Positions 28,765 to 63,829 are shown, counted from the stretch's first letter. The stretch is 64,000 nucleotides of DNA from an uncultured virus (IMG/VR IMGVR_UViG_3300037455_000857) (IMGVR_UViG_3300037455_000857); one strand, 5' to 3'. Made by a program: numbers and translations. The notes: generated by a model not told the origin, from the letters alone.

Positions 28765-28801
28765 AAGCGTTGCATTGCAACGCTTTTTTTGTTTATAAAT
28801 A
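28765..28801 (+). promoter_or_regulatory. Terminator followed by late promoter TATAAATA
   Basis: aagcgttgc-att-gcaacgctt plus a T run, then TATAAATA at 28794. Confidence 0.65.
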
Positions 28802-28817
28802 TAAGAAAATACTTTCT

Positions 28818-44319: not shown

Positions 44320-44321
44320 TT

Positions 44322-47746: not shown

Positions 47747-48191
47747 AAAGATATTGGGTGACTATGTGTTCACCATAGAGCGTGAAAACGGGAAAGGCGT
47801 TGATGTTCCGATTACGGAATTCGACTATGTTCCATCGGAGGCGTTCAACGTGGACATTCGTATTTACGGAGAAAACATTAGCAATTATTTCTCCAATCTG
47901 ATGCCGTTCAGCGCACAACAAAACAGATTGCTCAACAAGGCGGAACTGTTATTCAATTGCAGGATAACCGACAGTGACGATAACCACGTAGCCACGCTGC
48001 ACAGCGCGTACATATCGTCATACAACCATATTCCGAATACTGATATGGAGACAATATCCCTGCGTGCCGACTATTTTGAGGTCGGTCACGTTGTCAGTGC
48101 TTCTACAAAATTCGCGGAAATGAGTGCTGAACTGAACAAGGAAGCGGAAGAAACCGCAAGGAAATACGCCGATATGAATGACGGTTGGTAA
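47736..48191 (+). CDS. Hypothetical protein
   Basis: 151 aa; last gene before the convergent array. Confidence 0.7.
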   Translation: MKTEKILGDYVFTIERENGKGVDVPITEFDYVPSEAFNVDIRIYGENISNYFSNLMPFSAQQNRLLNKAELLFNCRITDSDDNHVATLHSAYISSYNHIPNTDMETISLRADYFEVGHVVSASTKFAEMSAELNKEAEETARKYADMNDGW

Positions 48192-48194
48192 TTA

Positions 48195-48641
48195 TCATCC
48201 CCTTTCCCAAACCACGTAAGAACCTTTTATCGGCGGATTATTGAAATATTCGATGTCAAGCGGCTGAACTGTGTCGTTTCGCCTGCGCACTTCGATGATT
48301 TGTGTTTCAGTTGTTTCCAATTTGCTGTCGTAAAACGATAACCCGTACCAAGAGAATCGACCTTTTTTCAAGAATTCGTCAATTATTATAGAGCCTTGGG
48401 TTTTGTTTTTTGTTTTTGCGTGGGTATAACCAAACAAGTTCGTCATTATGTTGTATTTGAATTTTGACATATCTTCGAATGATACATAAACGCCGATTCG
48501 TTTTGGGTTTGACGGGGTTTTGATTACAACAATGTCACCCGTTTGCAGATTGTCGCGCATAGCATTTGGCGTGCTGTATTGCGCTTTCGTATTGCGAAGC
48601 CGCTCCATTGTGATTGGCTGTATGTTCAGTTTGCTTCCCAT
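48195..48641 (-). CDS. Tagged protein, TGDIV domain, leaderless
   Basis: MGS-KLNIQPITMERL; LQTGDIV. Confidence 0.8.
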   Translation of the reverse strand: MGSKLNIQPITMERLRNTKAQYSTPNAMRDNLQTGDIVVIKTPSNPKRIGVYVSFEDMSKFKYNIMTNLFGYTHAKTKNKTQGSIIIDEFLKKGRFSWYGLSFYDSKLETTETQIIEVRRRNDTVQPLDIEYFNNPPIKGSYVVWERG

Positions 48642-48644
48642 ATA

Positions 48645-49121
48645 TTATATGCTGTTGAAAAAGAAATATGTTATGTCTTCGTCCGTGACGTTAAACCAAG
48701 TTTTCATACGTTCCACATAGGGTCTTATGAAGCAATCGTAGTTCGGGTTTTTCAGATAGACTTCTATCGCGCAATACAAATACACCACAAGGTTTTCCTT
48801 TTTTAGTTTGCCGTGTTTTGAGCGTTTCTCGTGCATCATTTTGCGGTTTTCAAATGGGTATATGTGTTCGGCATAGCGTTCCATTTGCTCCAACTTGCAC
48901 TTTTCGTCAATGAATTTTTTACCATCGATTCTGCTTTCAAGTAACCCTGCCTTCCTCAAACGAGCCACTGCGTTGGCGTAAAACACAAGATTCATAGTGC
49001 GCCATTTGTCGAATAATTCGTGGCTCTTTGCTATGTCGCGCACAGCCGAATCCAAGCGTTCCTTTGAAACGGGCTGTATGTTCAGTTTCTCGTTGAACTG
49101 TTCTGCGTTGAGTATTTCCAT
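48645..49121 (-). CDS. Tagged protein, unique helical domain
   Basis: MEILNAEQFNE-KLNIQPVSKERL. Confidence 0.8.
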   Translation of the reverse strand: MEILNAEQFNEKLNIQPVSKERLDSAVRDIAKSHELFDKWRTMNLVFYANAVARLRKAGLLESRIDGKKFIDEKCKLEQMERYAEHIYPFENRKMMHEKRSKHGKLKKENLVVYLYCAIEVYLKNPNYDCFIRPYVERMKTWFNVTDEDITYFFFNSI

Positions 49122-49127
49122 AGCCGT

Positions 49128-49709
49128 TTAATCTTTTACCAATCTGACACACATAGCATATTCCGTGAACATTCCGTCCATTTCTCTAAACTTGAAGAAA
49201 TCGCTGTCGTTTGATATACAAAGTTGGTATGGGAATCTACCGCGTTCATTCACCCAAAAAGCGAATGCCGTGTCGTCCCAAATTATTGTGTTGTTGGACG
49301 TGCTGTCTATGATTCCGCAATATTTGGCATTAAATCCGAATTTGTCGCTGCCTCCGCACTCTACAGACAAAAGGTCGGACACTTTGTCATCACAAACCAT
49401 TCGAAGATTCCTTATATCGTTGATTGTGGGCAAATGCCAACCGTTTGGAACTATTCTCTTTGCCGCATCGTATGTGTACAGCAATCCTATTTCACTTGAC
49501 TTTTTCATTCCGAAGAAATAGTCTTTGTGCAGCCTCAAATGACTTCCGTCAGCGCACATTGTCGTTGATAGGTTTGCCGCAGTCCAATACGAGTTACCTA
49601 TTTTCACGATTTTTCCGAGTTCGCTTATGGATTGCGTGTTTAGCAGTCGTTCCCTGCTTATCGGCTGTATGTCGAGTTTCTCTTTTATGAATTCTTCGTA
49701 CTTTTTCAT
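49128..49709 (-). CDS. Tagged protein, FISUMP-like domain
   Basis: MKKYEEFIKE-KLDIQPISRERL; VKIGNSYWTAANL, PNGWHLPT, VRLVKD. Confidence 0.85.
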   Translation of the reverse strand: MKKYEEFIKEKLDIQPISRERLLNTQSISELGKIVKIGNSYWTAANLSTTMCADGSHLRLHKDYFFGMKKSSEIGLLYTYDAAKRIVPNGWHLPTINDIRNLRMVCDDKVSDLLSVECGGSDKFGFNAKYCGIIDSTSNNTIIWDDTAFAFWVNERGRFPYQLCISNDSDFFKFREMDGMFTEYAMCVRLVKD

Positions 49710-49725
49710 TGTTAATATATATTGC

Positions 49726-50232
49726 TTATATATTGCGTATATTGTCAAAATCTTTGCTCTTGTAAATGAGCGTTGTGTTCTCTCTGTGGTTCGCCATAGT
49801 TTGCAGCATAAAGTCCGTGAAAGGCTGCGGCTTTAACATATTGTATCTGTAAATGGCGATTATTTGCGTGAGTTGCTTTCTTCCCATAATACTCATTTTG
49901 TTTTGCATCCGATTGTCTTCAAACGATTTCACCGACAAATAGCAGTAAGTTCTTGTGTCCTCGTTGAATCTGACGAACAGACCCTCCGAAAAATCCCCGT
50001 TGGTTTCCTTCGAATCGTAAAAAAGCAGGATGTCATTGTATTTATATTTGATTATGTCGCTATACGAAAGGTATATGTATGCGCTTATCTCTTCTATAGC
50101 CCATTCCTTTTCTATGATGACAATATCGCCGCTTTTTATTTTTCTTTTCCAACCATAGGATTCGGTTATGATGCCTTTTGCTATGTCGGCGAGTTTATCT
50201 TTTGAGATTGGTTGTATATTAAGTTTTCCCAT
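49726..50232 (-). CDS. Tagged protein, TGDIV domain, leaderless
   Basis: MG-KLNIQPISKDKL; IKSGDIV. Confidence 0.8.
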   Translation of the reverse strand: MGKLNIQPISKDKLADIAKGIITESYGWKRKIKSGDIVIIEKEWAIEEISAYIYLSYSDIIKYKYNDILLFYDSKETNGDFSEGLFVRFNEDTRTYCYLSVKSFEDNRMQNKMSIMGRKQLTQIIAIYRYNMLKPQPFTDFMLQTMANHRENTTLIYKSKDFDNIRNI

Positions 50233-50238
50233 AATATG

Positions 50239-50781
50239 CTATATGTCTTTGCAGAATCTGATTGTGAGTTTTGTTTCTGGGCTTGAAAACTGTATTGACA
50301 GAGGTATATCAGAACCTCTCAATATTCGGCAGGCTGTTCTGTATCCGCTTGCTGTCGGAGGGTTTGAGCAGAAAAACCAAGCCACTTGGAATCTTTGATG
50401 CACGCGGTCTGTCATACATCCGAGCATTTTTGCGCCGAAACCGTATTTGTCGCTGCCGCCGTCACCCTTTGCTATTATGTCGCTTCCGAAATCCAAAAGT
50501 TTCAGAAAATCGGTGGATGTGGGAAGCCTCCAACCTTTAGGGACGATTTTCATCGCGCCCTCATAGGTGTAGTAGTATGTGCCGTAGTCCCTCTTATAGT
50601 CAACGTTGTATTCGAGCGGGTTTCCGTCAGTACCGATTTCGATGTTCGCGTTCTCGGATGTCCATAAAAGACCGCCCAATTTCACAACGCCGAATCCATA
50701 CACGCCCCTGCCGAGACGTTCCTTTGAAATCGGCTGTATGTTGAGTTTCTCGTTGAATCGTTGTGTGTCGAGTATATCCAT
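50239..50781 (-). CDS. Tagged protein, FISUMP-like domain
   Basis: FNE-KLNIQPISKERL; WTSEN, PKGWRLPT, IRFCKD. Confidence 0.85.
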   Translation of the reverse strand: MDILDTQRFNEKLNIQPISKERLGRGVYGFGVVKLGGLLWTSENANIEIGTDGNPLEYNVDYKRDYGTYYYTYEGAMKIVPKGWRLPTSTDFLKLLDFGSDIIAKGDGGSDKYGFGAKMLGCMTDRVHQRFQVAWFFCSNPPTASGYRTACRILRGSDIPLSIQFSSPETKLTIRFCKDI

Positions 50782-50786
50782 ATCGT

Positions 50787-51260
50787 TTATATTTTACTGT
50801 GCCAAATCAACTTATAACTCTTCAGTGTCGGGTGCTTGAAATATTTGGCATCGAATGTCGTTTTCCCTATTCCGCGATACACGTGGTCTATGATATATGA
50901 AACAGACCTCAACTCGTCACGGACGACATCGTAGTCAAACAGTCTGTCAAACACGAATCTGTCTTTTTCCCAATGGACGAACACGCCTTCCCCCGCGTCA
51001 AATTCCAACGGTCTGAATCCTATTATGTCTTGGTATGTTCTGTTTTTCAAATCCTCGTATGAAACAAAAATGCCTATGTCGGACACGGGTATGTCGTATC
51101 TTCGGATACGCATAACGATGTCCCCCGTTTTGAAATTATCGCGCATTTCCTTTGCCGAACCGTATTCTTGCAATTCGGAAGCCGTGCTTTGCAGTCTCTC
51201 TTTTGAAAGAGGCTGTATGGATAGTTTCTCGTTAAGTTCACGTGTTTTCAGTATCTTCAT
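50787..51260 (-). CDS. Tagged protein, TGDIV domain
   Basis: LNE-KLSIQPLSKERL; FKTGDIV. Confidence 0.82.
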   Translation of the reverse strand: MKILKTRELNEKLSIQPLSKERLQSTASELQEYGSAKEMRDNFKTGDIVMRIRRYDIPVSDIGIFVSYEDLKNRTYQDIIGFRPLEFDAGEGVFVHWEKDRFVFDRLFDYDVVRDELRSVSYIIDHVYRGIGKTTFDAKYFKHPTLKSYKLIWHSKI

Positions 51261-51268
51261 AATTCCGA

Positions 51269-52345
51269 TTATATGTTTCTTACAAACCTCAACGACATAC
51301 CATATCGGATTGAGAGTTTTTCAACCCAAACGCCACCGTGTTCTGGTTTCAATTCTTTTCCAACGATTTTCACGCTTTTGACACTATCCATTTTCTGTGG
51401 GTCGTTTGCGTGTGGGCTATATGCTTCAAAAATGAGATTTGTGTACATATCCTTTCCTATGATTTTGTTGGGGGTATGTATGCCGAGGAGTTTTAGTCCA
51501 AACCCGTATTTGTCATTGCCGCCGTAATCCTTGGATATGAGGTCGATTATCTCGCCGTTGCATATCCCTAATGATTTGTTGATGTCATCCTTTGTCGGAA
51601 TCCGCCATCCGTTTGGCACTACGCTCACGGCGGCGTTGAACGTGTAATATATCTCGCCGTCTTCCTCGAAGTAGTCTGTTCCTTTGACAAGCGGGCTACC
51701 GCTGTGTGTGACAAGTGTTGTCGCGTTCTCTGCAGTCCAAATAAGATTGCCGATTTGCACGGTTTTTGTTTTCATTTTGTCCAAACGCTCGCTCGAAATG
51801 GGTTGGATTTTCAACTTCTCGTTGATGTCTTTCGGCTTGTAACTGAACACGGTACGGCATTTTCTGACGTAATTTTGGATTGCGACCAATGAAGCGCAGA
51901 ATAAATCTTCGCCCAATGGTTCTTTAAGCAAATCGTTTCTGAATATCTTATGGACAAATGTCACGCTGCGCAGAAGTTCTCTCTGCGGATATTTGTCGCC
52001 GTATGCCGAAATACAGTCGTATGTGAATTTCGGCGTGTTTCCGTGATAGTTCTTTCTAACAATTATGCCTTCCGATATATCATAATCATAAAGCGTGCTT
52101 ATGTCGAATATCTTGTTGTAATTGTATTTTTCAAGAGATTCTTGTGAAACATAAAAGTAAAAAGACGCTTCGTCAATGTCTCCGCCGAATTGTGAGTTGC
52201 ACATAACGACTATATCGCCAGTTTTAAGCGTGTGTTTCCAATCCGATGGCAATGTTGGACTTTGCAGTCTTTGGGCGATACGGTCTTTCGGTATCGGCTG
52301 TATGTTGAGTTTCTCGTTATATGCTTTCGTGTCAAGTATTTCCAT
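51269..52345 (-). CDS. Tagged polyprotein: TGDIV + FISUMP-like
   Basis: YNE-KLNIQPIPKDRI; internal INE-KLKIQPISSERL. Confidence 0.85.
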   Translation of the reverse strand: MEILDTKAYNEKLNIQPIPKDRIAQRLQSPTLPSDWKHTLKTGDIVVMCNSQFGGDIDEASFYFYVSQESLEKYNYNKIFDISTLYDYDISEGIIVRKNYHGNTPKFTYDCISAYGDKYPQRELLRSVTFVHKIFRNDLLKEPLGEDLFCASLVAIQNYVRKCRTVFSYKPKDINEKLKIQPISSERLDKMKTKTVQIGNLIWTAENATTLVTHSGSPLVKGTDYFEEDGEIYYTFNAAVSVVPNGWRIPTKDDINKSLGICNGEIIDLISKDYGGNDKYGFGLKLLGIHTPNKIIGKDMYTNLIFEAYSPHANDPQKMDSVKSVKIVGKELKPEHGGVWVEKLSIRYGMSLRFVRNI

Positions 52346-52350
52346 AGCGT

Positions 52351-53406
52351 TTAATCTTTTACAAGTCTTACGGGCAATGCGTGTACGCTTGTTGTTATCC
52401 AACTTCTGATGACGGAGTTGTCCGATTTGTTTCCGACCAAAGAGTAAGCCTTTCTGTATTCACCGTCACCCCACGGTTCGCAATCCATCCAAAACGTGAA
52501 AATCGAGTCGGATTCTCTGTATTTGAACCCGCAGTAATAATAACCGTCATAGGTTTCGTTCAGTCCGTATGTGTCATATCCGCCGCATTCCTTTGACGTG
52601 TATGCCGATATGTCGTCACCGCAAATGGCGATAAGTTTGATGACGTCCTCTTTTGTCGGCAAATGCCATCCATTCGGTATTATCGCCTTTGCCGTGTCGA
52701 ACTTATAATATATCTCAATGAAAGGATGCCCGTTTTTCGTTGTCTGTATCTCATAGTAGTCTTCCCCCGCTTTGAAATCGGAATTCGGTTCGATGACAAG
52801 GTTTTCGGCAGTCCACCACATATTTCCTATCTTGACGATGTTGCCGAGAAGCGGGTTGAACTGCGTGTTTATTTTGCTGTGCTTGTACTTTCCGAGCCTT
52901 TCTTTCGACATAGGCTGTATGTTGAGTTTTTCGTTGAGTCCTTCCTCCTCGTACAGACACACAGCCTTTGACCTATCTATCCGAGTGTTTGTCAAAAACT
53001 CCTTTGACGGGGTGCTTGTTAGATTGTATCTGTATATTCCCTTTATTTTCAAATTCGGGTTGGCAACGCCTTCCATACAGTTGTCCTTGAAATAACCCAA
53101 TCCTATATACGTGAAATAGTTGACATTTACGGGCGGGATAAGAAAGAATCCGCTTTTGCTTGCGAGGCTGTGTTCAATGTCGTACAGATTGAGGATATTC
53201 TCGTAATACCTTATATAGGTTTCATATCTCATAAAATAGCAAAGTGTGCTTTCGTCTTTGCTGAATTGGACAAGTACAGCGTCACCCGTTTGGAGTTTTT
53301 CCTTCCAACCGTTGCCGTTGTGTATCAGACGCATATTGGCGAGCCTTGCCTTTGACATAGGCTTTATGTTTAGTTTTTCCTCTATGTATTCCTCGTATGT
53401 TTTCAT
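52351..53406 (-). CDS. Tagged polyprotein: TGDIV + FISUMP-like
   Basis: MKTYEEYIEE-KLNIKPMSKARL; internal LNE-KLNIQPMSKERL. Confidence 0.85.
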   Translation of the reverse strand: MKTYEEYIEEKLNIKPMSKARLANMRLIHNGNGWKEKLQTGDAVLVQFSKDESTLCYFMRYETYIRYYENILNLYDIEHSLASKSGFFLIPPVNVNYFTYIGLGYFKDNCMEGVANPNLKIKGIYRYNLTSTPSKEFLTNTRIDRSKAVCLYEEEGLNEKLNIQPMSKERLGKYKHSKINTQFNPLLGNIVKIGNMWWTAENLVIEPNSDFKAGEDYYEIQTTKNGHPFIEIYYKFDTAKAIIPNGWHLPTKEDVIKLIAICGDDISAYTSKECGGYDTYGLNETYDGYYYCGFKYRESDSIFTFWMDCEPWGDGEYRKAYSLVGNKSDNSVIRSWITTSVHALPVRLVKD

Positions 53407-53408
53407 AA

Positions 53409-53972
53409 TCAGTTTTTTATAAATCTTACATTCATAAACAGACTTTTGTGTGCTGGACGCACCATTATTGATTCTGTTTTTGAAATCAAAATCGCTTGTG
53501 AATAGTCTTTCCCGTCAGATATGTGTCCGCAATCCCCGTTACACCATAATTGGTAGTCCTGCCCTTTGTATCGGACTACGCCGCTCTTTGTCACAAGCCC
53601 GTTGTATTTTCCGTTGAAATGCAACGAGTTGTTTCCGCCGCATTCCTTTGACATAAGGTTTTCCGACTTATAATCCGCAGCAGCACGCAATTCTTCGCCT
53701 TCTCGATATGTCGGAAGATGCCATCCATTCGGAACTACTTTCATCGCGCCGTTGTATGAATAATACACCTCGCCGTCAATAATTACATAATCAATGCCTT
53801 TGAGAAGGTTGCTTCCGTCAGCGCGTCTTGTCAAGCGGCAGTTCTGTGCAGACCAAATGCACGAGCCAATTTTCACAAACGGCATTCGTGCGGAATTCCC
53901 GTTCTTGAGGTCGTCTTGCTTAATGGGGCTTATGTTCAGTTTCTCCGATATGTATTCCTCGTATGTTTTCAT
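53409..53972 (-). CDS. Tagged protein, FISUMP-like domain
   Basis: MKTYEEYISE-KLNISPIKQDDL; PNGWHLPT. Confidence 0.85.
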   Translation of the reverse strand: MKTYEEYISEKLNISPIKQDDLKNGNSARMPFVKIGSCIWSAQNCRLTRRADGSNLLKGIDYVIIDGEVYYSYNGAMKVVPNGWHLPTYREGEELRAAADYKSENLMSKECGGNNSLHFNGKYNGLVTKSGVVRYKGQDYQLWCNGDCGHISDGKDYSQAILISKTESIMVRPAHKSLFMNVRFIKN

Positions 53973-53978
53973 AATCCG

Positions 53979-54494
53979 TTAATCTTTCACAAACCTCAAG
54001 TTGAGGAAATATTTTGATTTGTCTATTGATTCGAGATACAGTGTGTCAACCCGTTTCTCGCCGTTGAATATATACGGCACACCGTCAATGTCACACCAAA
54101 ACGAGAATCTTGTTCCGTTCACAATGTTCTCACCAACGTACACCTCGCCGCACAGTTTGAAATTCAGACCGTATTTGTCATAGCCGCCGTTGTCTTTGGA
54201 AATGAGGTCTGTCGGATTGTCGGTCAGTTGTCTGACCACGTTCACATCGTGTCCGTGCGGTATGTGCCAACCTTTCGGCGTTATGCGTTTTGCAGCGTCA
54301 AACGAGTAGAATACCTCGTTGTCATAAACGAAATAGTCCTCGCCCTTGACGAGACCGTCTGTTTTGTTGTAGTTGCGCGAAGACCAAGTCACCCCGTTCA
54401 CTGTTACGGGAAGCATAAGTGAATTGAGACGTTCTTTCGTGACGGGCTGTATGTTCAGTTTCTCGTTGAATTGCCGTGTATTCAGTATCTTCAT
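53979..54494 (-). CDS. Tagged protein, FISUMP-like domain
   Basis: FNE-KLNIQPVTKERL; PKGWHIP, LRFVKD. Confidence 0.85.
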   Translation of the reverse strand: MKILNTRQFNEKLNIQPVTKERLNSLMLPVTVNGVTWSSRNYNKTDGLVKGEDYFVYDNEVFYSFDAAKRITPKGWHIPHGHDVNVVRQLTDNPTDLISKDNGGYDKYGLNFKLCGEVYVGENIVNGTRFSFWCDIDGVPYIFNGEKRVDTLYLESIDKSKYFLNLRFVKD

Positions 54495-54516
54495 ATATGC
54501 GCTATATTATTCGATT

Positions 54517-55233
54517 TTATTGTAATTTTTTGTCATCAGTAACAACAATGCCGCCGACCCAACTTGGTTTGGTTTTTGGCGATTTCAATCGCGGGTTGTT
54601 TGAACAATAAAAGTTACCGCCGACTTTTTTCATTGCACCATTAATTGATATTATCTGATTGTATTCACAATCCAAATCTCTGCCGATTTCTATAGGTGCG
54701 TGTTTGAGTGATTCTATTTTGTTTTTACGGCAGGAAAAATTCTTTCCGACAAACCTTGGTGCGCCTTCAAGCGATGTTAAATTGTTGGCTTCGCAATAAA
54801 AACTGCCGTTCACTTTCTGCGGTGCGCCTTCAAGCGATGTCAATTGGTCATCATCACAAAAAAAGTCACCACCAATTTCCTGCGGTGCGCCTTTAAGTGA
54901 TTCCAATTTGTTGCCATCGCAGTAAAAATTTTCACCAATTTTCTTTGGCATACCGTAAAGCGATTTGAGTTTGCAATAATTGCAAATGACCGAGCCTTTA
55001 ACTATGCCGAATTTGATTTTCAATTTACCATTTTTATCAACTACACGAAAATCAATGGTGATGTCACCATCGCAGTCATATAGTCTCGACAATTTGTTCC
55101 ACACAAGTTCGTATTGGTTGATGAATGATTTTGCTTTATCATCAACCATTGGTTCATCAAACCTTTTGTCGTCACCGACAATCGGCTTGATATTCAATTT
55201 CTCGTTGAATTGCTGTGTGTTCAGTACCTTCAT
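54517..55233 (-). CDS. Tagged protein, LRR-like 22 aa repeats
   Basis: FNE-KLNIKP; repeats of LTSLEGAPQKVNGSFYC type. Confidence 0.85.
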   Translation of the reverse strand: MKVLNTQQFNEKLNIKPIVGDDKRFDEPMVDDKAKSFINQYELVWNKLSRLYDCDGDITIDFRVVDKNGKLKIKFGIVKGSVICNYCKLKSLYGMPKKIGENFYCDGNKLESLKGAPQEIGGDFFCDDDQLTSLEGAPQKVNGSFYCEANNLTSLEGAPRFVGKNFSCRKNKIESLKHAPIEIGRDLDCEYNQIISINGAMKKVGGNFYCSNNPRLKSPKTKPSWVGGIVVTDDKKLQ

Positions 55234-55252
55234 ATATGCGCTATATATTACA

Positions 55253-55705
55253 TTATTTATCCCTTTGCCAAATAAGTTCCATATCATCTCTGTTTATCGG
55301 CGGGTCTATGAAATAAACTGAAGGATATGGTTGTTCCGATTTGCCTCTGTATATAGACATAACTTTTTTGATTGTGAACGACTTTGTGTCAACAAGGTTG
55401 ATGTCGAAACGTGAAAGAGGCATCGTGATAAACCTGCTCTGTTTCTTGCTGTATGCCACGAATCCTCCATCCGAATATTCTTCACCGAACATACCTATCT
55501 TTGACGGATAATGTTCATTGCAATCCTCTTTTGATATGTAAACGTATGGGATGTTTTTTGTTGACGGGCTGAAATCGATGTCAATCACAACGAAGTCGCC
55601 GCTTTGCAGAAGTCGCTTCGGTGTCTTTGTGTTTTTCAGTCGTTCCTTGCTTATCGGCTGTATGTTGAGTCTTTCGTTAAATTGCTTTAAGTCAAGTATT
55701 TCCAT
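55253..55705 (-). CDS. Tagged protein, TGDIV domain
   Basis: FNE-RLNIQPISKERL; LQSGDFV. Confidence 0.82.
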   Translation of the reverse strand: MEILDLKQFNERLNIQPISKERLKNTKTPKRLLQSGDFVVIDIDFSPSTKNIPYVYISKEDCNEHYPSKIGMFGEEYSDGGFVAYSKKQSRFITMPLSRFDINLVDTKSFTIKKVMSIYRGKSEQPYPSVYFIDPPINRDDMELIWQRDK

Positions 55706-55706
55706 A

Positions 55707-56726
55707 TTAAAAGTCATATATTGATTTTTCCATTTGTGTAAAGTCCTGCTTGTATTTTTTCAATGCATCCAACTCTTCTTTTGTGTATGGTCGAATCCAT
55801 ATCTTTTCACCCTCATTTGACGGATTGTGGAAATATTTTACGTCCAACGGCTGTTTTATGTTTTTGTTCCTTATGATAAGGTCAAGAACAATGCCTTTCA
55901 ATGTTTTCCTTGTTTCCTCAAGTCTTTCATTGAAATTGGCAAGCCTTTCGTATTTGAACTCCACAGACTGTAAACCATTGTACTTGCCAATAATATTTTT
56001 GGTTTTCGAATACACGAGTATGCCCGTGTCGCTTATCCAATCTGGTTCATAAAGATTCAGTTCAAGTATTTTTTCATAATCATATTTGAAATAATCGTCC
56101 TTTGATATAAACACATAGAATTGGTGTGTCTTTGTCTTTATATTATGTGCGAACACAACGTCTCCCGTTTCCAATCGCTTTTTCGGCGGGACGGATTCTT
56201 TTGCGAGACGTTCCTTGCTCATAGGCTGTATTGACAATTTTTCAGACACACTTTCGACAACTTTCAATGATTTGTTTTTCCATATCAGCCTGCCGTTGTC
56301 AATAGGCGGGTACAGTAAGTAATCCTCCGACAGAGGGAGTTTGATGCCGTTCACTCTGTATATCGCCGTTATGTAATGGTTGTCAAAAATACCGTTTGGT
56401 TCAAGATTGTCGTTGAATCCAGACAAGTGCATATAGGAATACGAGCCTTTCCATTTTACTTCGTAATGCAGCAATATTCCTTCCGCCGACTTTTCTTTTT
56501 GATAGTCGCCCTCAAGATACACATAATCCCTTATATTGTCCTTTTCTATGTAAACATAGGGTACTTTGTTTCTTTCGGTCAACTTACTTCCGTATTTCAT
56601 CACCATTACTATATCGCCCGTTTTCAGCATCTGTTTCGGTTTTAGCAATGTGTTTTTTAGCCTATCGTTTGATATTGGCTGTATGTTGAGTTTCTCGCTC
56701 AACTGTTCGGTATTCATTATCTCCAA
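55707..56726 (-). CDS. Tagged polyprotein: 2 x TGDIV
   Basis: Probable TTG start giving MEIMNTEQLSE-KLNIQP (alternative ATG at 56738); internal VSE-KLSIQPMSKERL. Confidence 0.82.
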   Translation of the reverse strand: MEIMNTEQLSEKLNIQPISNDRLKNTLLKPKQMLKTGDIVMVMKYGSKLTERNKVPYVYIEKDNIRDYVYLEGDYQKEKSAEGILLHYEVKWKGSYSYMHLSGFNDNLEPNGIFDNHYITAIYRVNGIKLPLSEDYLLYPPIDNGRLIWKNKSLKVVESVSEKLSIQPMSKERLAKESVPPKKRLETGDVVFAHNIKTKTHQFYVFISKDDYFKYDYEKILELNLYEPDWISDTGILVYSKTKNIIGKYNGLQSVEFKYERLANFNERLEETRKTLKGIVLDLIIRNKNIKQPLDVKYFHNPSNEGEKIWIRPYTKEELDALKKYKQDFTQMEKSIYDF

Positions 56727-58549
56727 GCCTCGTCCCATATAAGATTTGTTTTTTTCGCAATGTAGTTTATGTTTTCAAAAAAATTTATGTCAATATGCGG
56801 TTCAGCCGCAATTCTGTAAACGCGCAGGACTTTTGTGTTCAAGTTCATTTGCAGACTGCTGTTGTATTCTGAAAGGAAATCCCTTGTGAAATAATTTGCC
56901 TTTTCCAAAAATACAAACGCACCTTCTTCTGATTCTTTGTAGTGTGACATAGGCAGGAAGAAATTGAACAGTTTGTCGTACTTCCCGCTTGCAACGTCCT
57001 CCGCCGATATGAATACGGTGGCGATGTGACCTTTTTGGTTTCCTATGATTGCTATGTCGCCCGTCTTGAAATTAGCCCTCATATCCCACGGTGTTTTGTA
57101 CTTCACCATAGGAAATGTGTTTTTCAGACGTTCTTTGCTTATTGGTTTTATATTCAGTTTCTCGTTCATCTTCATAGGTCTTTTGGCGAAACCGTGTTCA
57201 GCAGTCCAATAGCATTCGGCGAATGACACGGGAGGTCTTTGTATGTATTCTATCGAAATCCTGCTGTTTTGGCTGAAGTCTTTTATCCGAAGCAATGCAG
57301 ACACATACAAAGGGTTTGACGCTTTTGAAACAAGTTTGTCGTCAATGTCCTCGATGTATCGCCAAACATAGGTGTTGTCCCCAAACGGACGGACAAAGCA
57401 CCCGTTGAGGTTGTATTCCTCCATTGATTTAAGCATTGAGCCAAACGGGTATTCTAAATGCTTTTGCTTCTTTAGGTACTCACGTGTCACATACACTCTG
57501 TAATGATAGTGTCCGCTTTCGTTGCATTGCGCTATGTCGCCGCATTTTATGTGTGTTCTTATATCGTTCACATCGGAAGCGGTTTTTGCGAGTCGTTTAT
57601 TTGACATAGGCTGTATGTTCAGTTTTTCCAAAACGGATACATTCAGACCTTCTTCGGGTGTCCAATAAATCTTTCCGTAATCAATTGGCGGTGCTTTGAT
57701 GTATTCATTCATCGCGAAATCATTTGGGTCAAACTCATTCAGCCTCCACAACGCCTCTATCTGTGCGCCTTTTCCGTTATTGGCGACAAGAGATTCGTTA
57801 TATGTTTTTATGACGCATATAGCGAAAACATCCCCGCTGACCGAATACACGAACCCGCCGCTTGAATTTTCCGTTTTCAGTTTTTGGTAAATTAGGTCAA
57901 ACGGATATTGATTGCTCTGTTTTTTGGCAAAGTCGTATGTTATAAACACGGCATATTTCGTATCGCCAAAGGTTTCGCATCGCGCTATGTCGCCGCATTT
58001 CAAGTGTGTTCTGATGTCGTTCATATCGGAAACGGTTTTTGTAAGACGTTCCTTTGACATAGGTTGTATGTTAAGTTTCTCGGACACATCGCCAATGCGC
58101 TTGTATATGATTTCCGATTTGTTTTTGAGCGACTTTATGTCCAAGAAAAATTCATCGTCAAACGGCTGCTCTATGTCAAAGCACCTCGCGATTTCAACTA
58201 TCTTGTCGCCCCACTTGTTTTCCATTTTGTCGTTCATATACCTGCTCAAGCAAGTGTAGGTGTAGCGGTCGTCCGTCCTATGGACAAGCACACCCTCATT
58301 CGCGTCTTTGTTGAACCCAACGGATGTTATTTTCAGCAGGTCGTTGTAATAGTATTTGTTCAAGTCCTCATAAGACAGAAATATGTATTCGTTCAGCATT
58401 CCGAGCATTATGGATTCTCTGTGATGTTCCATAACTATCACGTCACCGCTTTTCAAACGGTCTTTCCACCCAAGCCTTTCGATTATGCGGGCGTGTCGTA
58501 TTTTCATACGGTTTGGTGCTATGGGCTGTATGTTAAGTTTCTCGTTCAT
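56717..58549 (-). CDS. Tagged polyprotein: 4 x TGDIV
   Basis: Tags after MNE, VSE, VLE and MNE, one per domain. Confidence 0.88.
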   Translation of the reverse strand: MNEKLNIQPIAPNRMKIRHARIIERLGWKDRLKSGDVIVMEHHRESIMLGMLNEYIFLSYEDLNKYYYNDLLKITSVGFNKDANEGVLVHRTDDRYTYTCLSRYMNDKMENKWGDKIVEIARCFDIEQPFDDEFFLDIKSLKNKSEIIYKRIGDVSEKLNIQPMSKERLTKTVSDMNDIRTHLKCGDIARCETFGDTKYAVFITYDFAKKQSNQYPFDLIYQKLKTENSSGGFVYSVSGDVFAICVIKTYNESLVANNGKGAQIEALWRLNEFDPNDFAMNEYIKAPPIDYGKIYWTPEEGLNVSVLEKLNIQPMSNKRLAKTASDVNDIRTHIKCGDIAQCNESGHYHYRVYVTREYLKKQKHLEYPFGSMLKSMEEYNLNGCFVRPFGDNTYVWRYIEDIDDKLVSKASNPLYVSALLRIKDFSQNSRISIEYIQRPPVSFAECYWTAEHGFAKRPMKMNEKLNIKPISKERLKNTFPMVKYKTPWDMRANFKTGDIAIIGNQKGHIATVFISAEDVASGKYDKLFNFFLPMSHYKESEEGAFVFLEKANYFTRDFLSEYNSSLQMNLNTKVLRVYRIAAEPHIDINFFENINYIAKKTNLIWDEAWR

Positions 58550-58560
58550 TGTATTGTTGT

Positions 58561-59703
58561 TTATTTGTCTTTGCAGAATCTCAATGACAGTCTGTATTTG
58601 TGTTTGTCGGACTTGTTTATGGAATCAGTCCAAGCATTGCCTCTTGGGTTGTTCATAGTACCCATAACCTTTAACATATAGGCTAAAGGTTTTCTTATTG
58701 TGCCGAATTGTGAAATATCGTTATAGTAATGTTCAACCCAAAACTCTGTGTATTTGTCGTTACCAAGTCTGTGTGTGTCGTAAAGCACGCCAATAAGTTT
58801 GGCGCAGAATCCCAATTCGTCACTTCCGCCGTATTCTTTGGATACGAGCGAAAGATAGTTTCTATCAGAAACGCAGTCGAGAAGGTCATCGCAGTCTTTG
58901 ACTGTCGGTATTCTCCATCCTTTTGGAATAACGAGTTTTGCCGCGTTCATTGAATAGAAAATCTCCCCGTTTGCTTCAATGTAGTCGTTTCCTTCAACAA
59001 GAGGCTCTCCGTCATTTGTGAACAGTATTTTGGCATTTTCGGCACTCCAAAGTTTGTTGCCGATTTGAACACTTTTTATGTGTGTTGTGTTTTTGAGACG
59101 CTCGCTTGATATGGGCTGTATGTTGAGTTTCTCGTTTACGTTCTTATAGAACATATTGTAGATTTCCCGCAAGGCGTTTGTGTTTATGTCCGTGTCATAG
59201 AACGGCTGTTTCGGGACAATGCCTGGTCTGTATATCACGGATATTGCTTCAAACGAATACGGCTTCGGGGGTATTGCAATTGGTCTTTCGTCACCAAAAT
59301 AGTCTATGCACAAGAAATGGTGTTTGTGCGAGTCGTTTCCGCAGTATCTGTTTTTCTCCAAGTATTCGTGTATGTCCGAGCCGTATCCTATGAGAATGCC
59401 GTTTTTGATGTATTCCTTTCTGTTAGGATATAACTTGAAAAAGTCGTACAGTTTGTCGTATTCGTATTTCATATAGTCTTTGTATGAAACATATCTGTAC
59501 TTTTTTTCTATAAACGGTATGTTCGTGTTCTCGTGCATTCTCGTGACGACAACGACATCGCCGCTTTCAAGACGGCGTTTCCAACCATACCTTTCAAACG
59601 GGTCGGTACGCAGCGCGTCAGAAGCGTTTTTCAGCGCGTCTTTCGACAAAGGCTTTATATTCAGTTTCTCGTCTATATATTCTGTTGTTCCGAGTATTTT
59701 CAT
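58561..59703 (-). CDS. Tagged polyprotein: TGDIV + FISUMP-like
   Basis: IDE-KLNIKPLSK; internal VNE-KLNIQPISSERL. Confidence 0.85.
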   Translation of the reverse strand: MKILGTTEYIDEKLNIKPLSKDALKNASDALRTDPFERYGWKRRLESGDVVVVTRMHENTNIPFIEKKYRYVSYKDYMKYEYDKLYDFFKLYPNRKEYIKNGILIGYGSDIHEYLEKNRYCGNDSHKHHFLCIDYFGDERPIAIPPKPYSFEAISVIYRPGIVPKQPFYDTDINTNALREIYNMFYKNVNEKLNIQPISSERLKNTTHIKSVQIGNKLWSAENAKILFTNDGEPLVEGNDYIEANGEIFYSMNAAKLVIPKGWRIPTVKDCDDLLDCVSDRNYLSLVSKEYGGSDELGFCAKLIGVLYDTHRLGNDKYTEFWVEHYYNDISQFGTIRKPLAYMLKVMGTMNNPRGNAWTDSINKSDKHKYRLSLRFCKDK

Positions 59704-59713
59704 AAATTTCAGT

Positions 59714-60784
59714 TTATCTTTCCCAAATTTTCACAGCCTTGTATATGGGCTGTTCTTTGAAATATTCCACGTCAAGCGGGAGTTTCAGATTGACGAATCG
59801 CCACACCACCCATATACAATAGTCTTTTCCGTTTTGCGTGAGGTTTGAATCCAACTGCGCGAGGTCTGTCCGTGTGAACGTTTCCTTGCCCGCATCATAT
59901 GGGGCGTGCTTGTAAAAGATGATGAACACGCCATCCTTGTAGAATCGCGTATCGCGGAGTGCGATTGCAAATCCGAAATATTTGTCATAGGTTTCGTTCT
60001 CAATGTCTTCCTTTGATATGTACACGCCTATGTGCTTGGTATTGGGTTTTCCAATCAAGGCAATGTCGCCCGTCTTGAAGTTGGCACGCATATCCATCGC
60101 GCTATTATAATGTACTATATGGTTGCGCAGCCGTTCTCTTGATATAGGCTGTATGTTGAGTTTTTCTTTAAGCGGTTTTATGTTTTTGAGATTCCATTTC
60201 GAAGAATCCCCGCTCAAACTTGTAACGGTTTGGAACATAGTGTCTATGTTCTGGATATTGTCCGTTTTTATCTGTGTGTCGTTGCGCTTTCTTTTCCATA
60301 TAAGTTCATACCCATTGTCTTCAAACGATGCCGTCATACATACTTTTTTAACCAAATCCGTTGGATTTATCGACTTCAGATTTTTGTGTCTGAAAATGGC
60401 TATAACCGTTCTGTGTGTTATGGTCGGGCTTTGGCTTGTTTCTTGCAAGTTGTTGTCGAATTCATCCAACAGAGTGTATGTCAGACGGTTTACGTCTCCG
60501 CAATAGTTTATGATACAACCGCTGTGGTTGGTATCGTTGTTCACTATATCTTGGTTGAGTCCGCATTTGGAATAGTCATTGTATGCCACAAACATTCCCA
60601 TTGAAAGAGTGATGCCGCCGAATGCCTGCTCGTCTTTTATAGTAAGCAAGTCCCCCGTTTGCAGGTTGGAACGCATATAGTGTGGAGTCATTCTATCCCC
60701 CACACGCTCGTTGCGCAGTCTTTCGTCCGAAATGGGCTTTATATTCAGTTTCTCGTTAAGTTGTCTTGTGTTCAGTACTTTCAT
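59714..60784 (-). CDS. Tagged polyprotein: 2 x TGDIV
   Basis: LNE-KLNIKPISDERL; internal LKE-KLNIQPISRERL. Confidence 0.85.
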   Translation of the reverse strand: MKVLNTRQLNEKLNIKPISDERLRNERVGDRMTPHYMRSNLQTGDLLTIKDEQAFGGITLSMGMFVAYNDYSKCGLNQDIVNNDTNHSGCIINYCGDVNRLTYTLLDEFDNNLQETSQSPTITHRTVIAIFRHKNLKSINPTDLVKKVCMTASFEDNGYELIWKRKRNDTQIKTDNIQNIDTMFQTVTSLSGDSSKWNLKNIKPLKEKLNIQPISRERLRNHIVHYNSAMDMRANFKTGDIALIGKPNTKHIGVYISKEDIENETYDKYFGFAIALRDTRFYKDGVFIIFYKHAPYDAGKETFTRTDLAQLDSNLTQNGKDYCIWVVWRFVNLKLPLDVEYFKEQPIYKAVKIWER

Positions 60785-62190
60785 AGCCTTGTGTTTTTTA
60801 CTATTATTCCGTCAACCCTGCATTTGTCAAATATGCTGAAGTCGGAGATTCTCACGCAACCGTTAAGATTGATGTTTCCGCCAACGTATTCGGGTACTGC
60901 GCTGACATCGACCAAATTGTAGCAGAACGACAGCACGAAGTCGCCGCTTATATTCAATGGGACATCGTTTATCCTTTCAAGATTCGTGCAATATGCGAAA
61001 TCGAAATTGCCCTTTACTGTTTTTGGAGAGCCGTCAAATGAAACCAAATCCGTGCATTTGTTGAACAATGCGTCACCTCCTATTTCCTGCGGTGCGCCGA
61101 TTAGGTTTTTCAGTTTGACGTTTCTGTTGCACCAAAAACCCCCGCCGACTTTCTGCGGTGCGCCTTCAAGGGTTTGCAGGTTTTCGCAGTTCGAGCAGTC
61201 CAAATTACCGATTACCTGCTTCGGTGCGCCTTTCATTGTGAGCAGTCCCTTGCAGGACGAACAGTTGAAGTCAGAGCCTATTTCCTGCGGTGCGCCTTCG
61301 AGCGTTTCGATGTTGTTGCACATAGCGCAACTGAACCACCCGCCGACTTTCTGCGGTGAGCCTTTCAGTGATGTCAGTCCTTGGCATCCAGCGCATTGGA
61401 AATTGCCTTTCACTTCTGTCGGCGCGTTTTCAAGCGAAACCAAGTCGGAGCAACCGCCGCTGTTGAAATTACCGCCCAACTTCCCAACGGGAACGGGTAT
61501 TTTGCCGTCAACCAAGTCCTTGTCGTTCAGAATCAGATTTTCGATGCCGTCAAATCTCTGCGTGCTTACGTTGTATGTGAGGTGGTGATTCTCAACAAAC
61601 GCTTTCTGCTCCAAACTCAAACGCGGAACAAGTCTGTCTTTGGGAAACGGGTGTATGTCGAGTTTCTCGTTCAAATTTGCGCCTCTCGCCCAAAGGAGTG
61701 AGAATATGTTTACTTTGTCGTTGAATTTGTTTCCGATATACTCAAAGTCAATCGGTGTTTTCACAATGGACGGAACTCGATATACAGCATATATTCGATG
61801 TATGTTGTCTTTGTTTTTTATCTCGAAGTTTCGGTCAAACGATTTAAGATACTCGTAGTTGTTGTATTTGTCCCCGAATACGGAAACAAACACGCCTTCA
61901 CCAACGTAGTCTTTGTTTAGAAAACACATACCAGTTTCGTTCATATAGTATTTTTCGTCTTTCATCCAATCCTCGTATGATATGTAAACTTGAAGTTTCG
62001 CGTTATACTCATCGTATTTGCTCCCGATTAAATGTCCTTCGGATATGATTGCGATGTCGCCCGTTTTGAAATTGGCACGCATTACTTCCTTTGTCTTATA
62101 AAGAGAGTAAAATCCGCCTTTAAACCTATTCATCGGAATTGGCTGTATGTTGAGTTTCTCGTTGAATTGCTTTGTGTTCAGTATTTTCAT
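60781..62190 (-). CDS. Tagged polyprotein: TGDIV + LRR-like repeats
   Basis: FNE-KLNIQPIP; internal LNE-KLDIHPFPKDRL; LEGAPQxxGGxFxC repeats. Confidence 0.85.
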   Translation of the reverse strand: MKILNTKQFNEKLNIQPIPMNRFKGGFYSLYKTKEVMRANFKTGDIAIISEGHLIGSKYDEYNAKLQVYISYEDWMKDEKYYMNETGMCFLNKDYVGEGVFVSVFGDKYNNYEYLKSFDRNFEIKNKDNIHRIYAVYRVPSIVKTPIDFEYIGNKFNDKVNIFSLLWARGANLNEKLDIHPFPKDRLVPRLSLEQKAFVENHHLTYNVSTQRFDGIENLILNDKDLVDGKIPVPVGKLGGNFNSGGCSDLVSLENAPTEVKGNFQCAGCQGLTSLKGSPQKVGGWFSCAMCNNIETLEGAPQEIGSDFNCSSCKGLLTMKGAPKQVIGNLDCSNCENLQTLEGAPQKVGGGFWCNRNVKLKNLIGAPQEIGGDALFNKCTDLVSFDGSPKTVKGNFDFAYCTNLERINDVPLNISGDFVLSFCYNLVDVSAVPEYVGGNINLNGCVRISDFSIFDKCRVDGIIVKNTRL

Positions 62191-62197
62191 ACATTGT

Positions 62198-62692
62198 TTA
62201 TCTTTCCCAAATGATTTTTGCGTTTTTTGTGTTCGGATATTTGTAGTATTCTTCGTCAAACTTGCCGTGATTTATAAAAGGATTCCTATAAACGCAAATG
62301 ATTTTGCTTTTTCCAATATGATAATCACTAATAAGTTCATCATTGTAACTGCTGCAATATTCATATACGAAACCGCTTGCATATGTTTTACTGCTAACGA
62401 ACACACCGTCTCTGATATTATCGGAATAGTAATTCAAATTATTTAATCCAAGCAGTTTTCCGAATTGTTTGTCAATCAAATCTTCAAATGAAACATATAC
62501 AGATTTTATGTCCGAACCGCTTGACACACCATTATAATTCACCATTTCTGATATGACAATATCGCCAGTTTCGAAATTGTTGCGCATATCCTTTGGCGTG
62601 GCGTATTTTGCCGAAATGCGTTGCAATACATTCTTGTCGATAGGATGTATGTCGAGTTTCTCGTTGAATTGCCTTGTGTTCAGTATTTTCAT
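62198..62692 (-). CDS. Tagged protein, TGDIV domain
   Basis: FNE-KLDIHPIDKNVL; FETGDIV. Confidence 0.82.
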   Translation of the reverse strand: MKILNTRQFNEKLDIHPIDKNVLQRISAKYATPKDMRNNFETGDIVISEMVNYNGVSSGSDIKSVYVSFEDLIDKQFGKLLGLNNLNYYSDNIRDGVFVSSKTYASGFVYEYCSSYNDELISDYHIGKSKIICVYRNPFINHGKFDEEYYKYPNTKNAKIIWER

Positions 62693-63156
62693 AAACGTTG
62701 TCTTTCTTTGTCATATATGAGTTTGCATCGTTCTTTCGGTGGATTCTTGAAATACATAGGTTTTAACGGTTGTGATATTTCTGACGGTCGATATACCTTT
62801 TCAACACAAACCGTTTTTAATCGAACCAAATCCTTGTCAAAATAATCGACAATTCCAAATCCAAGCGTTCCGAGGTATTTTGTGATAAAAACACCGTCTT
62901 CCAATTTCCCGTATTTCATCATATCATTAATGCTCATATTAAGAAGTTCGTTATACTTGTATTCAGTCAAATCGTTTTTCGATACGAAAACACCGTCAAC
63001 ACCGCCGTTGGTTGAAAGGGTCACAATGTCACCAGTTTTGAAATCGGCACGCATATCTTCGGCTGATTTCGGTATGAATATGTTGTCGAGTCGTTCTTTT
63101 GACATCGGCTGTATGTCGAGTTTCTCGTTGAATTGACTTGTGTTCAGTATCTTCAT
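62689..63156 (-). CDS. Tagged protein, TGDIV domain
   Basis: FNE-KLDIQPMSKERL; FKTGDIV. Confidence 0.82.
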   Translation of the reverse strand: MKILNTSQFNEKLDIQPMSKERLDNIFIPKSAEDMRADFKTGDIVTLSTNGGVDGVFVSKNDLTEYKYNELLNMSINDMMKYGKLEDGVFITKYLGTLGFGIVDYFDKDLVRLKTVCVEKVYRPSEISQPLKPMYFKNPPKERCKLIYDKERQRL

Positions 63157-63162
63157 ACGGCG

Positions 63163-63822
63163 TTAAATTTTGTCCCAAACGAAAATGAAAAGTTGCAGGA
63201 AGCACACGACTTCCATAAAGAATATCCACGCCTTGTTGTCAACGTCAACGGAATAGTCGGGGTTGTATGCGCCAGGGGTGTTGATGCCTATCAGTATGAA
63301 CATCACATAGGACAGAATCATACTCGGTATCGCGACAAAACTTGTAAGGCAGAGATAAGTCGTGATGAGTGCTATTGTAACAAGGGAGCAGATATAGTGT
63401 ATGGGTCTTGCCCAACCGTATTTGAAAAACACGCTTGGCTTGAATTTCTCCAAGAGTTCCTTTATGAATTCCTTGAATGACTTTTTGACGATGGGCTGCT
63501 TGGTGTCGAAGCGAACTTCGGGTACATAGGTGTCTCCGCCGTCACGTTTTGGTCCAGATTTGTAGCGGCAACTAACGCCTATCATAACCATACACACGAC
63601 AACCACAATCGGAATCCAACAAAGGTTTTTCGGGGATATTGTGAACCACCAAAAACCGAATGGAACTGCGGTTAGCGAACACCACGCGCTGAACATCCAA
63701 TCCCATTTGTTAGGGAGAAGGTAGTATGTTTCGGAAATTGATACGGGAACTCCGTATTTGAACAATATAAAGATTATGTATGCAAAGCACAACACAATCG
63801 AAATAATGGGTAAACTAATCAT
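63163..63822 (-). CDS. Multi-pass membrane protein
   Basis: About six hydrophobic segments; directly upstream of and co-oriented with the tagged array. Confidence 0.8.
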   Translation of the reverse strand: MISLPIISIVLCFAYIIFILFKYGVPVSISETYYLLPNKWDWMFSAWCSLTAVPFGFWWFTISPKNLCWIPIVVVVCMVMIGVSCRYKSGPKRDGGDTYVPEVRFDTKQPIVKKSFKEFIKELLEKFKPSVFFKYGWARPIHYICSLVTIALITTYLCLTSFVAIPSMILSYVMFILIGINTPGAYNPDYSVDVDNKAWIFFMEVVCFLQLFIFVWDKI

Positions 63823-63829
63823 AATACTC

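Follow-up and report, generated by a model that had tools for sequence, protein, structure and literature searches.

A putative T4-style load-and-cut tag on variable cargo proteins of an uncultured gut phage and its relatives

The window analysed here is a 64,000-nucleotide stretch of DNA from an uncultured virus (IMG/VR IMGVR_UViG_3300037455_000857), with positions counted from its first letter. It contains an array of 19 genes whose products share a bipartite tag: a short N-terminal leader resembling the capsid-targeting sequence (CTS) of phage T4, and about twelve conserved residues beginning with KLNIQP or a close variant, after which unrelated cargo domains follow. The reading that we lean towards, with confidence only slightly past the halfway mark, is that the tag would mark a large and variable set of head-packaged binding proteins, some of them made as polyproteins, for loading and cutting in the style of T4.

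In such a system, the first 11–12 residues (MKILNTxQFNE, MEILKSEQYINE or MKTYEEYIEE) would serve as a T4-type CTS and give entry into the prohead core. A protease of the gp21 family would then cut after the Glu of (Y/F/I/L/V)-x-E, both at the N-terminus and at each inter-domain junction of the polyproteins, leaving units of 14–30 kDa that begin with KLNIQP(I/V)(S/T)K(E/D)RL. The cargo would consist of fast-diverging, strain-variable binders, namely lectin-like FISUMP domains, leucine-rich repeat (LRR)/DUF285 repeats and small beta-rich TGDIV domains, which most plausibly would be delivered with the DNA and act early by binding or inhibiting host factors. The leader and tag DNA would at the same time form a common homology patch for the gain, loss and fusion of cassettes. 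If this is true, a widespread clade of uncultured giant phages of cattle and animal guts spends about 10% of its genes on head-borne proteins, far beyond T4's handful of head-internal proteins, and naturally maintains a library of host-factor binders delivered in advance, perhaps with anti-defence roles, that can be searched for by its tag.

Extent of the tag family

An earlier note on this DNA had reported 19 tagged open reading frames (ORFs) at 48195–63156. These were all recovered, back-to-back on the minus strand, with gaps of 3–20 nucleotides or overlaps of a few bases. A six-frame search of the window with the regular expression KL.I.P gave 36 matches, 35 of them in tag context and one due to chance (26465). 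The array accounted for 27 matches, and a relaxed expression with R in place of K added the variant ERLNIQP at 55672, so that the proposed 28 tags on 28 domains were confirmed. Using a profile of positions −3 to +12 relative to the putative cut, 36 matches were obtained in the six frames of the window at 19.3–38.1 bits, while the next best match had 4.4 bits; the tag set is hence cleanly separated. At the DNA level, the 20-nucleotide form GARAAACTNAAYATAMARCC was present in 18 copies in the window and in none in each of 100 shuffles. BLAST clustering of the array cargo with the tag removed exactly reproduced the split given in the earlier note into 18 TGDIV, 7 FISUMP, 2 LRR and one other domain.

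The contents of the array thus stood as described, but the tag is not limited to it: eight more tags lie elsewhere in the window, at 28860, 30026 and 30544 (plus strand), 32670, 33381 and 33867 (minus strand), and 44086 and 44538 (plus strand). The last two are internal and come after Gly instead of Glu. Equating the family with the 15-kb array proved too narrow as well, since about 10% of the ORFs in a complete relative carry the tag, scattered over the whole genome. This relative, G001, is a 413,021-bp IMG/VR phage contig with a CheckV completeness of 100% that was analysed at full length, and the window (1–64 kb) is syntenic with its first 61 kb at 66–85% nucleotide identity. G001 contains 66 tags on 57 ORFs, spread from 29 kb to 382 kb. 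Based on a greedy ORF call, Glu plus tag was found in 53 of its 527 ORFs, corresponding to 12,295 of 125,889 residues. The flanks of the array, on the methylase side and on the membrane-protein side, are conserved between window and G001 (78–84% nucleotide identity), whereas the array itself aligned in short pieces only and is therefore hypervariable between conserved flanks. Scanning IMG/VR with the tag DNA motif yielded 41 loci, with the true tags clustering in five contigs of 43–413 kb.

The spread of the tag among proteins was assessed with a 34-position profile, built from 57 leader-plus-tag N-termini and run against 1.84 billion protein representatives. At E ≤ 0.001 it matched 192 of them, of which 43 reached E ≤ 1e-10. 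In the best 150 of the 192, 185 tags were located by regular expression, 139 N-terminal and 46 internal. The residue before the putative cut (P1) was Glu in 185 of 185 tags, a figure that is partly circular for its N-terminal share, as Glu and the hydrophobic residue at P3 were part of the profile, and less so for the 46 internal tags. At P3 the counts were I 83, V 45, F 24, L 20, M 4, Y 3, T 3, A 2 and R 1, so that I, V, F, L, M or Y occupied this position in 179 of 185 tags. Literature searches on its peptide strings and on CTSs in jumbo or huge phages, which covered the accessible part of PMC12880540, brought up no account of the tag.

Leader, putative cut and head protease

Translation of the T4 record gave MKTYQEFIAE as the leader of both IPIII and IPII, as the earlier note had it, and MKTFKEFTS.. 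for IPI. Three window ORFs are identical to MKTYQEFIAE at 7 of 10 positions (MKTYEEYIEE, MKTYEEYISE and MKKYEEFIKE). For window and G001 together, this level was reached by 4 of 608 ORFs, compared with 0.01 expected from internal 9-mers; the fourth match is a tag-less 90-residue G001 protein starting with MKTYSDFIGE|GF. The commoner leader, MKILNT..FNE, is more distant from the T4 CTS. In an alignment of 57 N-termini, M1, E11, L13, I15 and P17 were invariant, and I3, L4 and K12 were conserved in at least 90%. Judged by these comparisons, the leader is T4-CTS-like beyond chance.

According to the accessible part of PMC9026906, the first 10 residues of T4 IPIII are enough for head targeting, targeting is influenced by residues 4 and 7 of the CTS and processing by residues 8 and 10, and gp21 cuts after L/I-x-E, in agreement with the (I/L)-X-E site named earlier for gp21. 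The authors also propose there that the CTS evolved as a means of bringing varied proteins into T4-like capsids. A hydrophobic-x-Glu sequence stands ahead of 26 of the 28 array tags. The two without it are, as previously stated, those of the leaderless ORFs, which start with MGS|K (48195–48641) and MG|K (49726–50232), and in ORF 56717–58549, which starts with MNE|K, the initiator Met takes the P3 position. The model predicted for one TGDIV unit (62689–63156; predicted local distance difference test score (pLDDT) of 91.2) puts the E|K bond into a coil segment flanked by two short helices, with the fold proper beginning near residue 27.

A protease and a capsid protein of the expected types were detected in the relatives. 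G001 encodes an S77/gp21 protease (profile match, 49.5 bits) and, immediately past its array and on the opposite strand, a gp23-type capsid protein (98.1 bits). Across the five tag-bearing records, PF03420 was above cut-off in three, and PF07068 in G001, G002 and G005. In G001 and G002 the capsid gene is followed by three tagged genes on the same strand as the capsid gene, and both capsid proteins contain ..MLNE|SVDG near residue 50–57.

The protease ORF of G001 (290919–292871, locus L060; 647–651 residues) comprises the S77 domain, then about 13 tandem 14-residue repeats with the unit H(N/S)DYLAE(K/Q)L..NF., and a predicted C-terminal helical region. The repeats were modelled by AlphaFold2 as one long helix (residues 254–442; pLDDT ~60–75, 59.9 overall). 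Among G001 ORFs of at least 100 residues, the expression [YF][ILVM]xE[KQ]L had 48 matches, of which 34 were in cargo leaders and 9 in protease repeats, with 5 elsewhere. By this comparison the end of the cargo leader together with the first two tag residues, (Y/F)(I/L/V)xE|KL, is a short motif that is repeated in the protease extension, a match which suggests an origin for capsid-targeting sequences. For the long form of the protease, 6125 homologues were found among 8000 candidates scored, some from a marine survey. All 21 sampled long S77 homologues (of 120 listed) had 7–19 aromatic-aliphatic-x-Glu matches, mostly in the form of Y(L/I/V)xE repeats. From this we infer that the extension is scaffold-like and would be chopped at each repeat as T4 core proteins are. 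Co-folding of a leader-plus-tag peptide with the full protease ORF, run without controls, gave 0.00 against a mark of 0.32 and is uninformative either way.

The T4-like leader, the cut motif and the protease and capsid protein in relatives are all upheld by these results. The notion of leader and tag as a fixed pair is not, as each also occurs alone. T4-like leaders with no tag directly after them were seen in G001 at 176352–176624, 178758, 192643 and 318699 (MKTYSDFIGE, MEIYKFEQFIAE, MKILSLDQFIAE and MEIKTYDNFICE, respectively); the protein at 192643 has a tag further in, near residue 117. The small G001 proteins that have such a leader and no adjoining tag are, going by their N-termini, candidates for classical internal proteins. 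An AAA_5 ATPase in the window (7834–9267, plus strand) starts with MEILNTKDYEKE and its G001 counterpart (5645) with MKILNTKDYESE, an N-terminus that is leader-like but has neither a tag nor a hydrophobic P3. The beginning of a head-maturation-protease PHROG is matched by a 132-residue window protein (40219–40617, plus strand), which has ..N.NGRIY.. in common with the S77 protease of G001 and may be a truncated protease paralog.

Conserved residues beyond the putative cut

The conservation of some twelve residues past the putative cut, which had been singled out as the new part, is indeed unusual, the T4 sites being without them. No other part of the proteins was as well conserved as the tag. 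Across the alignment of 37 TGDIV units, L, I and P of the tag and one Gly were invariant, and the mean pairwise identity was 0.68 in the tag versus 0.22 in the cargo. Past +2 or +3, nothing of the tag recurs in the repeats of the protease, at the capsid site or in the tag-less leaders, and the junctions of the latter read E|GAGAGY, E|SAKTVA and E|GFISAV, with no IQP..K.RL. Compared across these sites, residues +3 to +12 seem dispensable for cleavage itself.

This comparison also bears on a different account, in which load-and-cut holds and the twelve residues are merely the prime-side half of a recognition element that mimics the protease repeat, would co-assemble with the core and is inert after maturation. 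Leader plus tag does resemble one protease repeat (QYINEKLN.. versus DYLAEKLN..), and concerted evolution of the tag within a genome would be expected if all copies fit one shared partner. The likeness ends at +3, however, with IQP..K.RL missing from the repeats, from the capsid site E|SVDG and from the tag-less leaders, and the tag is also found without leader and without Glu; we consider this account unlikely. Cleavage after the second acidic residue (S/T-K-E|R) was ruled out, as E occupies that position in no more than 22 of the 36 tags of the window and 25 of the 66 of G001.

The tag differs between genomes. Of the 36 window tags, 3 had V at position +7, as against 56 of the 66 in G001 (p = 1.3e-14). 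In the cargo tree, window and G001 units were interleaved, with 12 label changes compared with 12.7 after shuffling, and the terminal branches had a median length of 1.29 changes per site. Such a genome-specific tag on interleaved cargo implies a partner shared by all copies, or gene conversion, or both, and on these alignments the tag is evolving in concert within each genome. Recent duplication as the source of tag identity was ruled out by the interleaving of the cargo and its very long branches.

A shared partner is central to an extended form of the proposal, which we regard as possible but less likely than not. Here the tag would hold two addresses: the leader loads, after which the exposed KLNIQP(I/V)(S/T)K(E/D)RL is read by one co-evolving partner, the same sequence doubling as a recombination joint. 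A docking site in the head interior, the portal or the tail channel could be this partner and might order or thread the proteins for ejection. In that case, about one-tenth of the genes would use this route, with an arsenal that is reshuffled between strains. What reads the twelve-residue second part may bear on how proteins leave a phage head.

Codon usage in the tags was biased. In the window, GAG was used in 25 of 32 cases (background 0.26), ATA in 34 of 36 (0.54) and CAG in 19 of 22 (0.42), while codon choice was free for Leu and Pro; in the G001 tags, CCC encoded Pro in 54 of 66 cases (background 0.14). The preference for GAG-AAA at E-K, ATA for Ile and CAG for Gln can be seen, for example, at 49072–49091 and 62141–62160, and differs in detail in G001. 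Gene conversion is the likely source of this bias, and a function at the nucleotide level is conceivable.

Contigs from four sequencing runs were compared over 47000–64000. One contig of 1504 nucleotides (run X6) covers 52748–53382 and resumes at 53949–54462, a clean skip of 566 nucleotides in which 28 nucleotides fit both sides. Exactly the gene at 53409–53972 is gone, and the breakpoints fall in MKTYEEYI.EKLNI leader/tags. At four more contig joints, 11–12 unmatched letters separate the two sides, and all ends lie in tags or leaders. Together, the skip and the four joints indicate that tags serve as recombination joints, which would account for the fused ORFs of two to four units and the two leaderless in-frame ORFs. 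The leaderless ORFs (joints at 48641–48645 and 50232–50239) look recently split or not yet fused.

Taken further, these data could mean that conservation acts mainly on the DNA, with gene conversion maintaining a uniform stretch of homology because it allows cassettes to recombine, and with the peptide secondary. The synonymous codon bias, the genome-specific consensus, the 566-nucleotide skip with its 28 ambiguous nucleotides and the other joints ending in tags all speak for it. Yet the peptide is kept where codons differ (Leu and Pro in the window), always in frame and at a fixed distance from the N-terminal Met, and it is conserved over 192 clusters and many contigs. We therefore give this explanation very little weight, although it is compatible with a load-and-cut address.

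Cargo, genome setting and comparison with known systems

The tag was found on at least 27 cargo clusters in window and G001 (BLAST clustering without the tag). PF09603 (Fib_succ_major) matched seven window ORFs, five of them over the gathering cut-off of 33.9 bits (57.3, 45.5, 43.8, 37.0 and 35.1 bits); the FISUMP units under the cut-off (32.1 and 23.3 bits) clustered with the others by BLAST. The two LRR units of the window had no Pfam match, and one matched phrog_7816. They clustered with 16 G001 units, one of which reached LRR_4 (34.7 bits). DUF285 was matched at 142.4 bits in a separate tagged G001 protein that was a singleton in the clustering. Among the best 150 of the 192 database representatives, Pfam placed DUF285 in 14, PF09603 in 14 and LRR_4 in 2; there were six single matches besides, and the others had no family. 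Most tagged proteins matched no Pfam or PHROGs family. Lone or sub-threshold matches on tagged proteins were to MafB19-deam, APOBEC_C and pentapeptide. The single 'other' cargo of the array clusters with the protein with the APOBEC_C match, but it has a helical look and no deaminase motif was seen in it.

For the TGDIV fold, the best structural match was 3kw0_A (Z-score 5.8, root-mean-square deviation 3.4, 99 residues), followed by YiiX (Z 4.5) and NlpC/P60 entries (Z 3.0–3.8); the Pfam match to NLPC_P60 was below cut-off. These matches, obtained with VIA-align, amount to no more than a weak permuted-papain/NlpC-like lead. Foldseek returned nothing at E ≤ 0.001 in PDB or BFVD for the TGDIV model, and the ESM Atlas returned unnamed viral clusters at 0.76. 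None of the 37 TGDIV units' cargo columns held an invariant Cys or His. The columns conserved in at least 90% were the G and D of TGD, one more G and an R.

FISUMP and LRR/DUF285 are binding-type folds and are typical of cell-surface proteins. In its long branches, the contrast between tag and cargo, and the presence or absence of one gene between samples, the evolution of the cargo looks like an arms race.

Several points weigh against a load-and-cut address. Surface-type domains of this kind would suit exposure on the outside of the virion no less than cytoplasmic delivery. P1' is Lys in the tags and Ala at the three T4 sites translated. Two array ORFs and the two ORFs at 43852–44765 carry the tag without a preceding Glu, which implies a role of the tag that does not require a cut. 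The protease and capsid genes are known from relatives, the window being the part of its own genome that was analysed, and the conservation of Glu and a hydrophobic P3 is in part built into the profile, as described above. The phage and its relatives are all uncultured, and we infer packaging, cleavage and ejection, as well as the functions of the cargo and of residues +3 to +12, from sequence alone.

Some of these points are shared by an explanation in which the tag is an address to somewhere other than the head interior, such as an anchor for interchangeable adhesin domains on the virion surface or fibres or a signal for assembly or turnover in the cytoplasm, with a convergent likeness to the T4 CTS. 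The prevalence of binding folds (PF09603 and DUF285 as counted above), their surface-protein character, the four window proteins with a tag and no cut motif, and the giant collagen-like fibre encoded in the window are in its favour. It leaves unexplained, though, the invariant Glu with its hydrophobic P3, the polyprotein junctions, the motif in the protease extension and the T4-like leaders on small tag-less proteins, and we hold it to be distinctly improbable.

The features of the window that belong to the tag family, together with the large terminase, are collected in Table 1. The best matches of the terminase were to uncultured huge phages, PAU, PTm1 and Lak. The window also encodes PhoH, an RNA ligase, a DNA methylase and a TnpB-like gene. 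The latter, TnpB/Cas12f-like with OrfB_IS605 and TNB domains (31171–32022, minus strand), sits amid the tagged cluster adjoining the terminase. The paralogous ORFs at 43852–44765 encode 147–155 residues with ..NPN(F/Y)..P.....G-KLNIKPIT..RLS.M in mid-chain and stand among non-structural-looking genes. A collagen-repeat ORF of more than 2487 residues (1–7464, plus strand), open at the window start, matches phage tail-fibre families, and its G+C-rich repeats give rise to long spurious ORFs in other frames and on the opposite strand. The window has 35 tRNA genes covering most amino acids (14964–27348, plus strand), among which there are a few small ORFs, e.g. a YqeY-like and a glycosyltransferase-like one.

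Near-identical DNA was present in 20 runs from 13 studies (one possibly the source DNA) with bovine, sheep or plain gut metagenome labels, two of the runs carrying coded organism names. The two-domain array protein encoded at 59714–60784 had no tblastn match in 50,697 GenBank phage records, and a k-mer homologue search with one FISUMP gene (53409–53972) gave a single match, a 90%-identical protein, and thus no clue to the host. In one metatranscriptome, 13 contigs fell on the array stretch at an identity of at least 95% (12 at at least 99%); as DNA carry-over is possible and strand and level are not given, these were not counted as proof of expression. A scan of the array for sigma-70 promoters and terminators showed no excess over shuffles.

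Table 1 Features of the tag family and the large terminase in the window.
Feature	Position	Strand	Basis or remark
Array: 19 ORFs, 28 tags, 28 domain units	48195–63156	−	ORF calls, regular expression, profile, clustering
Leaderless MGS-KLNIQP + TGDIV	48195–48641	−	In frame with upstream ORF, one TAA between
Leader MEILNAEQFNE + tag, helical 'other' cargo	48645–49121	−	Cargo family has 3 members in G001
T4-like leader MKKYEEFIKE + tag, FISUMP	49128–49709	−	PF09603, 57.3 bits
Leaderless MG-KLNIQP + TGDIV	49726–50232	−	In frame with upstream ORF, one TAG between
Leader + tag, FISUMP	50239–50781	−	PF09603, 37.0 bits
Leader + tag, TGDIV	50787–51260	−	ORF call, BLAST clustering
Leader-tag-TGDIV, internal INE|KLKIQP tag (51817), FISUMP	51269–52345	−	Regular expression, Pfam, clustering
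MKTYEEYIEE-tag-TGDIV, internal LNE|KLNIQP tag (52929), FISUMP	52351–53406	−	Regular expression, Pfam, clustering
MKTYEEYISE-tag-FISUMP	53409–53972	−	Pfam; gene missing from one contig of run X6
Leader + tag, FISUMP	53979–54494	−	23.3 bits, under Pfam cut-off; joined by BLAST clustering
MKVLNTQQFNE-tag, LRR repeats	54517–55233	−	phrog_7816; listed ORF extends to 55287
Leader + variant tag ERLNIQP, TGDIV	55253–55717	−	Relaxed regular expression, clustering
Two TGDIV units, tags 56693 and 56240 (VSE|K)	55707–56738	−	Regular expression, clustering
Four TGDIV units, start MNE|KLNIQP, tags 58540, 58078, 57625, 57160	56717–58549	−	Regular expression, clustering, profile
TGDIV + FISUMP, tags 59667 and 59130	58561–59703	−	Regular expression, Pfam, clustering
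Two TGDIV units, tags 60751 and 60163	59714–60784	−	Regular expression, clustering
TGDIV + LRR, tags 62157 and 61665	60781–62190	−	Regular expression, clustering
Leader + tag, TGDIV	62198–62692	−	ORF call, clustering
Leader + tag, TGDIV	62689–63156	−	Unit used for structure prediction, pLDDT 91.2
Three tagged ORFs outside array	28770–29240, 29993–30499, 30508–31149	+	Regular expression, profile
Two tagged ORFs adjoining large terminase	32050–32709; 32713–33906 (two tags)	−	Regular expression, profile
Two paralogous ORFs, mid-protein tag after Gly, no leader, no Glu	43852–44765	+	Regular expression, profile
Large terminase, T4-type	33930–35837	−	Family matches; puts phage in T4-like head-module lineage

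The closest known counterparts are T4's IPI, IPII and IPIII internal proteins together with Alt, in which a short common leader likewise ends in aliphatic-x-Glu on otherwise unrelated small proteins. The T4-type terminase, capsid protein and S77 protease of the lineage and its variable gene content agree with this comparison, in which the tagged proteins are known from genes alone. They depart from T4 in their number (about 50 genes per genome versus a handful), in polyproteins with internal sites, in Lys at P1', in the twelve conserved residues past the putative cut, and in FISUMP, LRR and TGDIV binders where T4 has small basic proteins.

Head proteases with a long C-terminal extension, such as the protease-scaffold fusions known from other phages, are comparable to the G001 protease, in which a long predicted helix follows the S77 domain. 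Its ~13 units of 14 residues, each with a putative cut motif, set it apart.

Giant phages of the phiKZ/SPN3US type also have many paralogous head or ejection proteins, a gp21-related protease and x-x-Glu motifs, and the size of their virion paralog families varies between phages, up to 20 members, according to the accessible part of PMC5694885. In that part of the source, their propeptides are mostly longer than 100 residues with the motif A/S-x-E, and no common short bipartite tag is described. The leaders reported here are, by contrast, of T4 length, and the family is defined by its tag and not by a domain.

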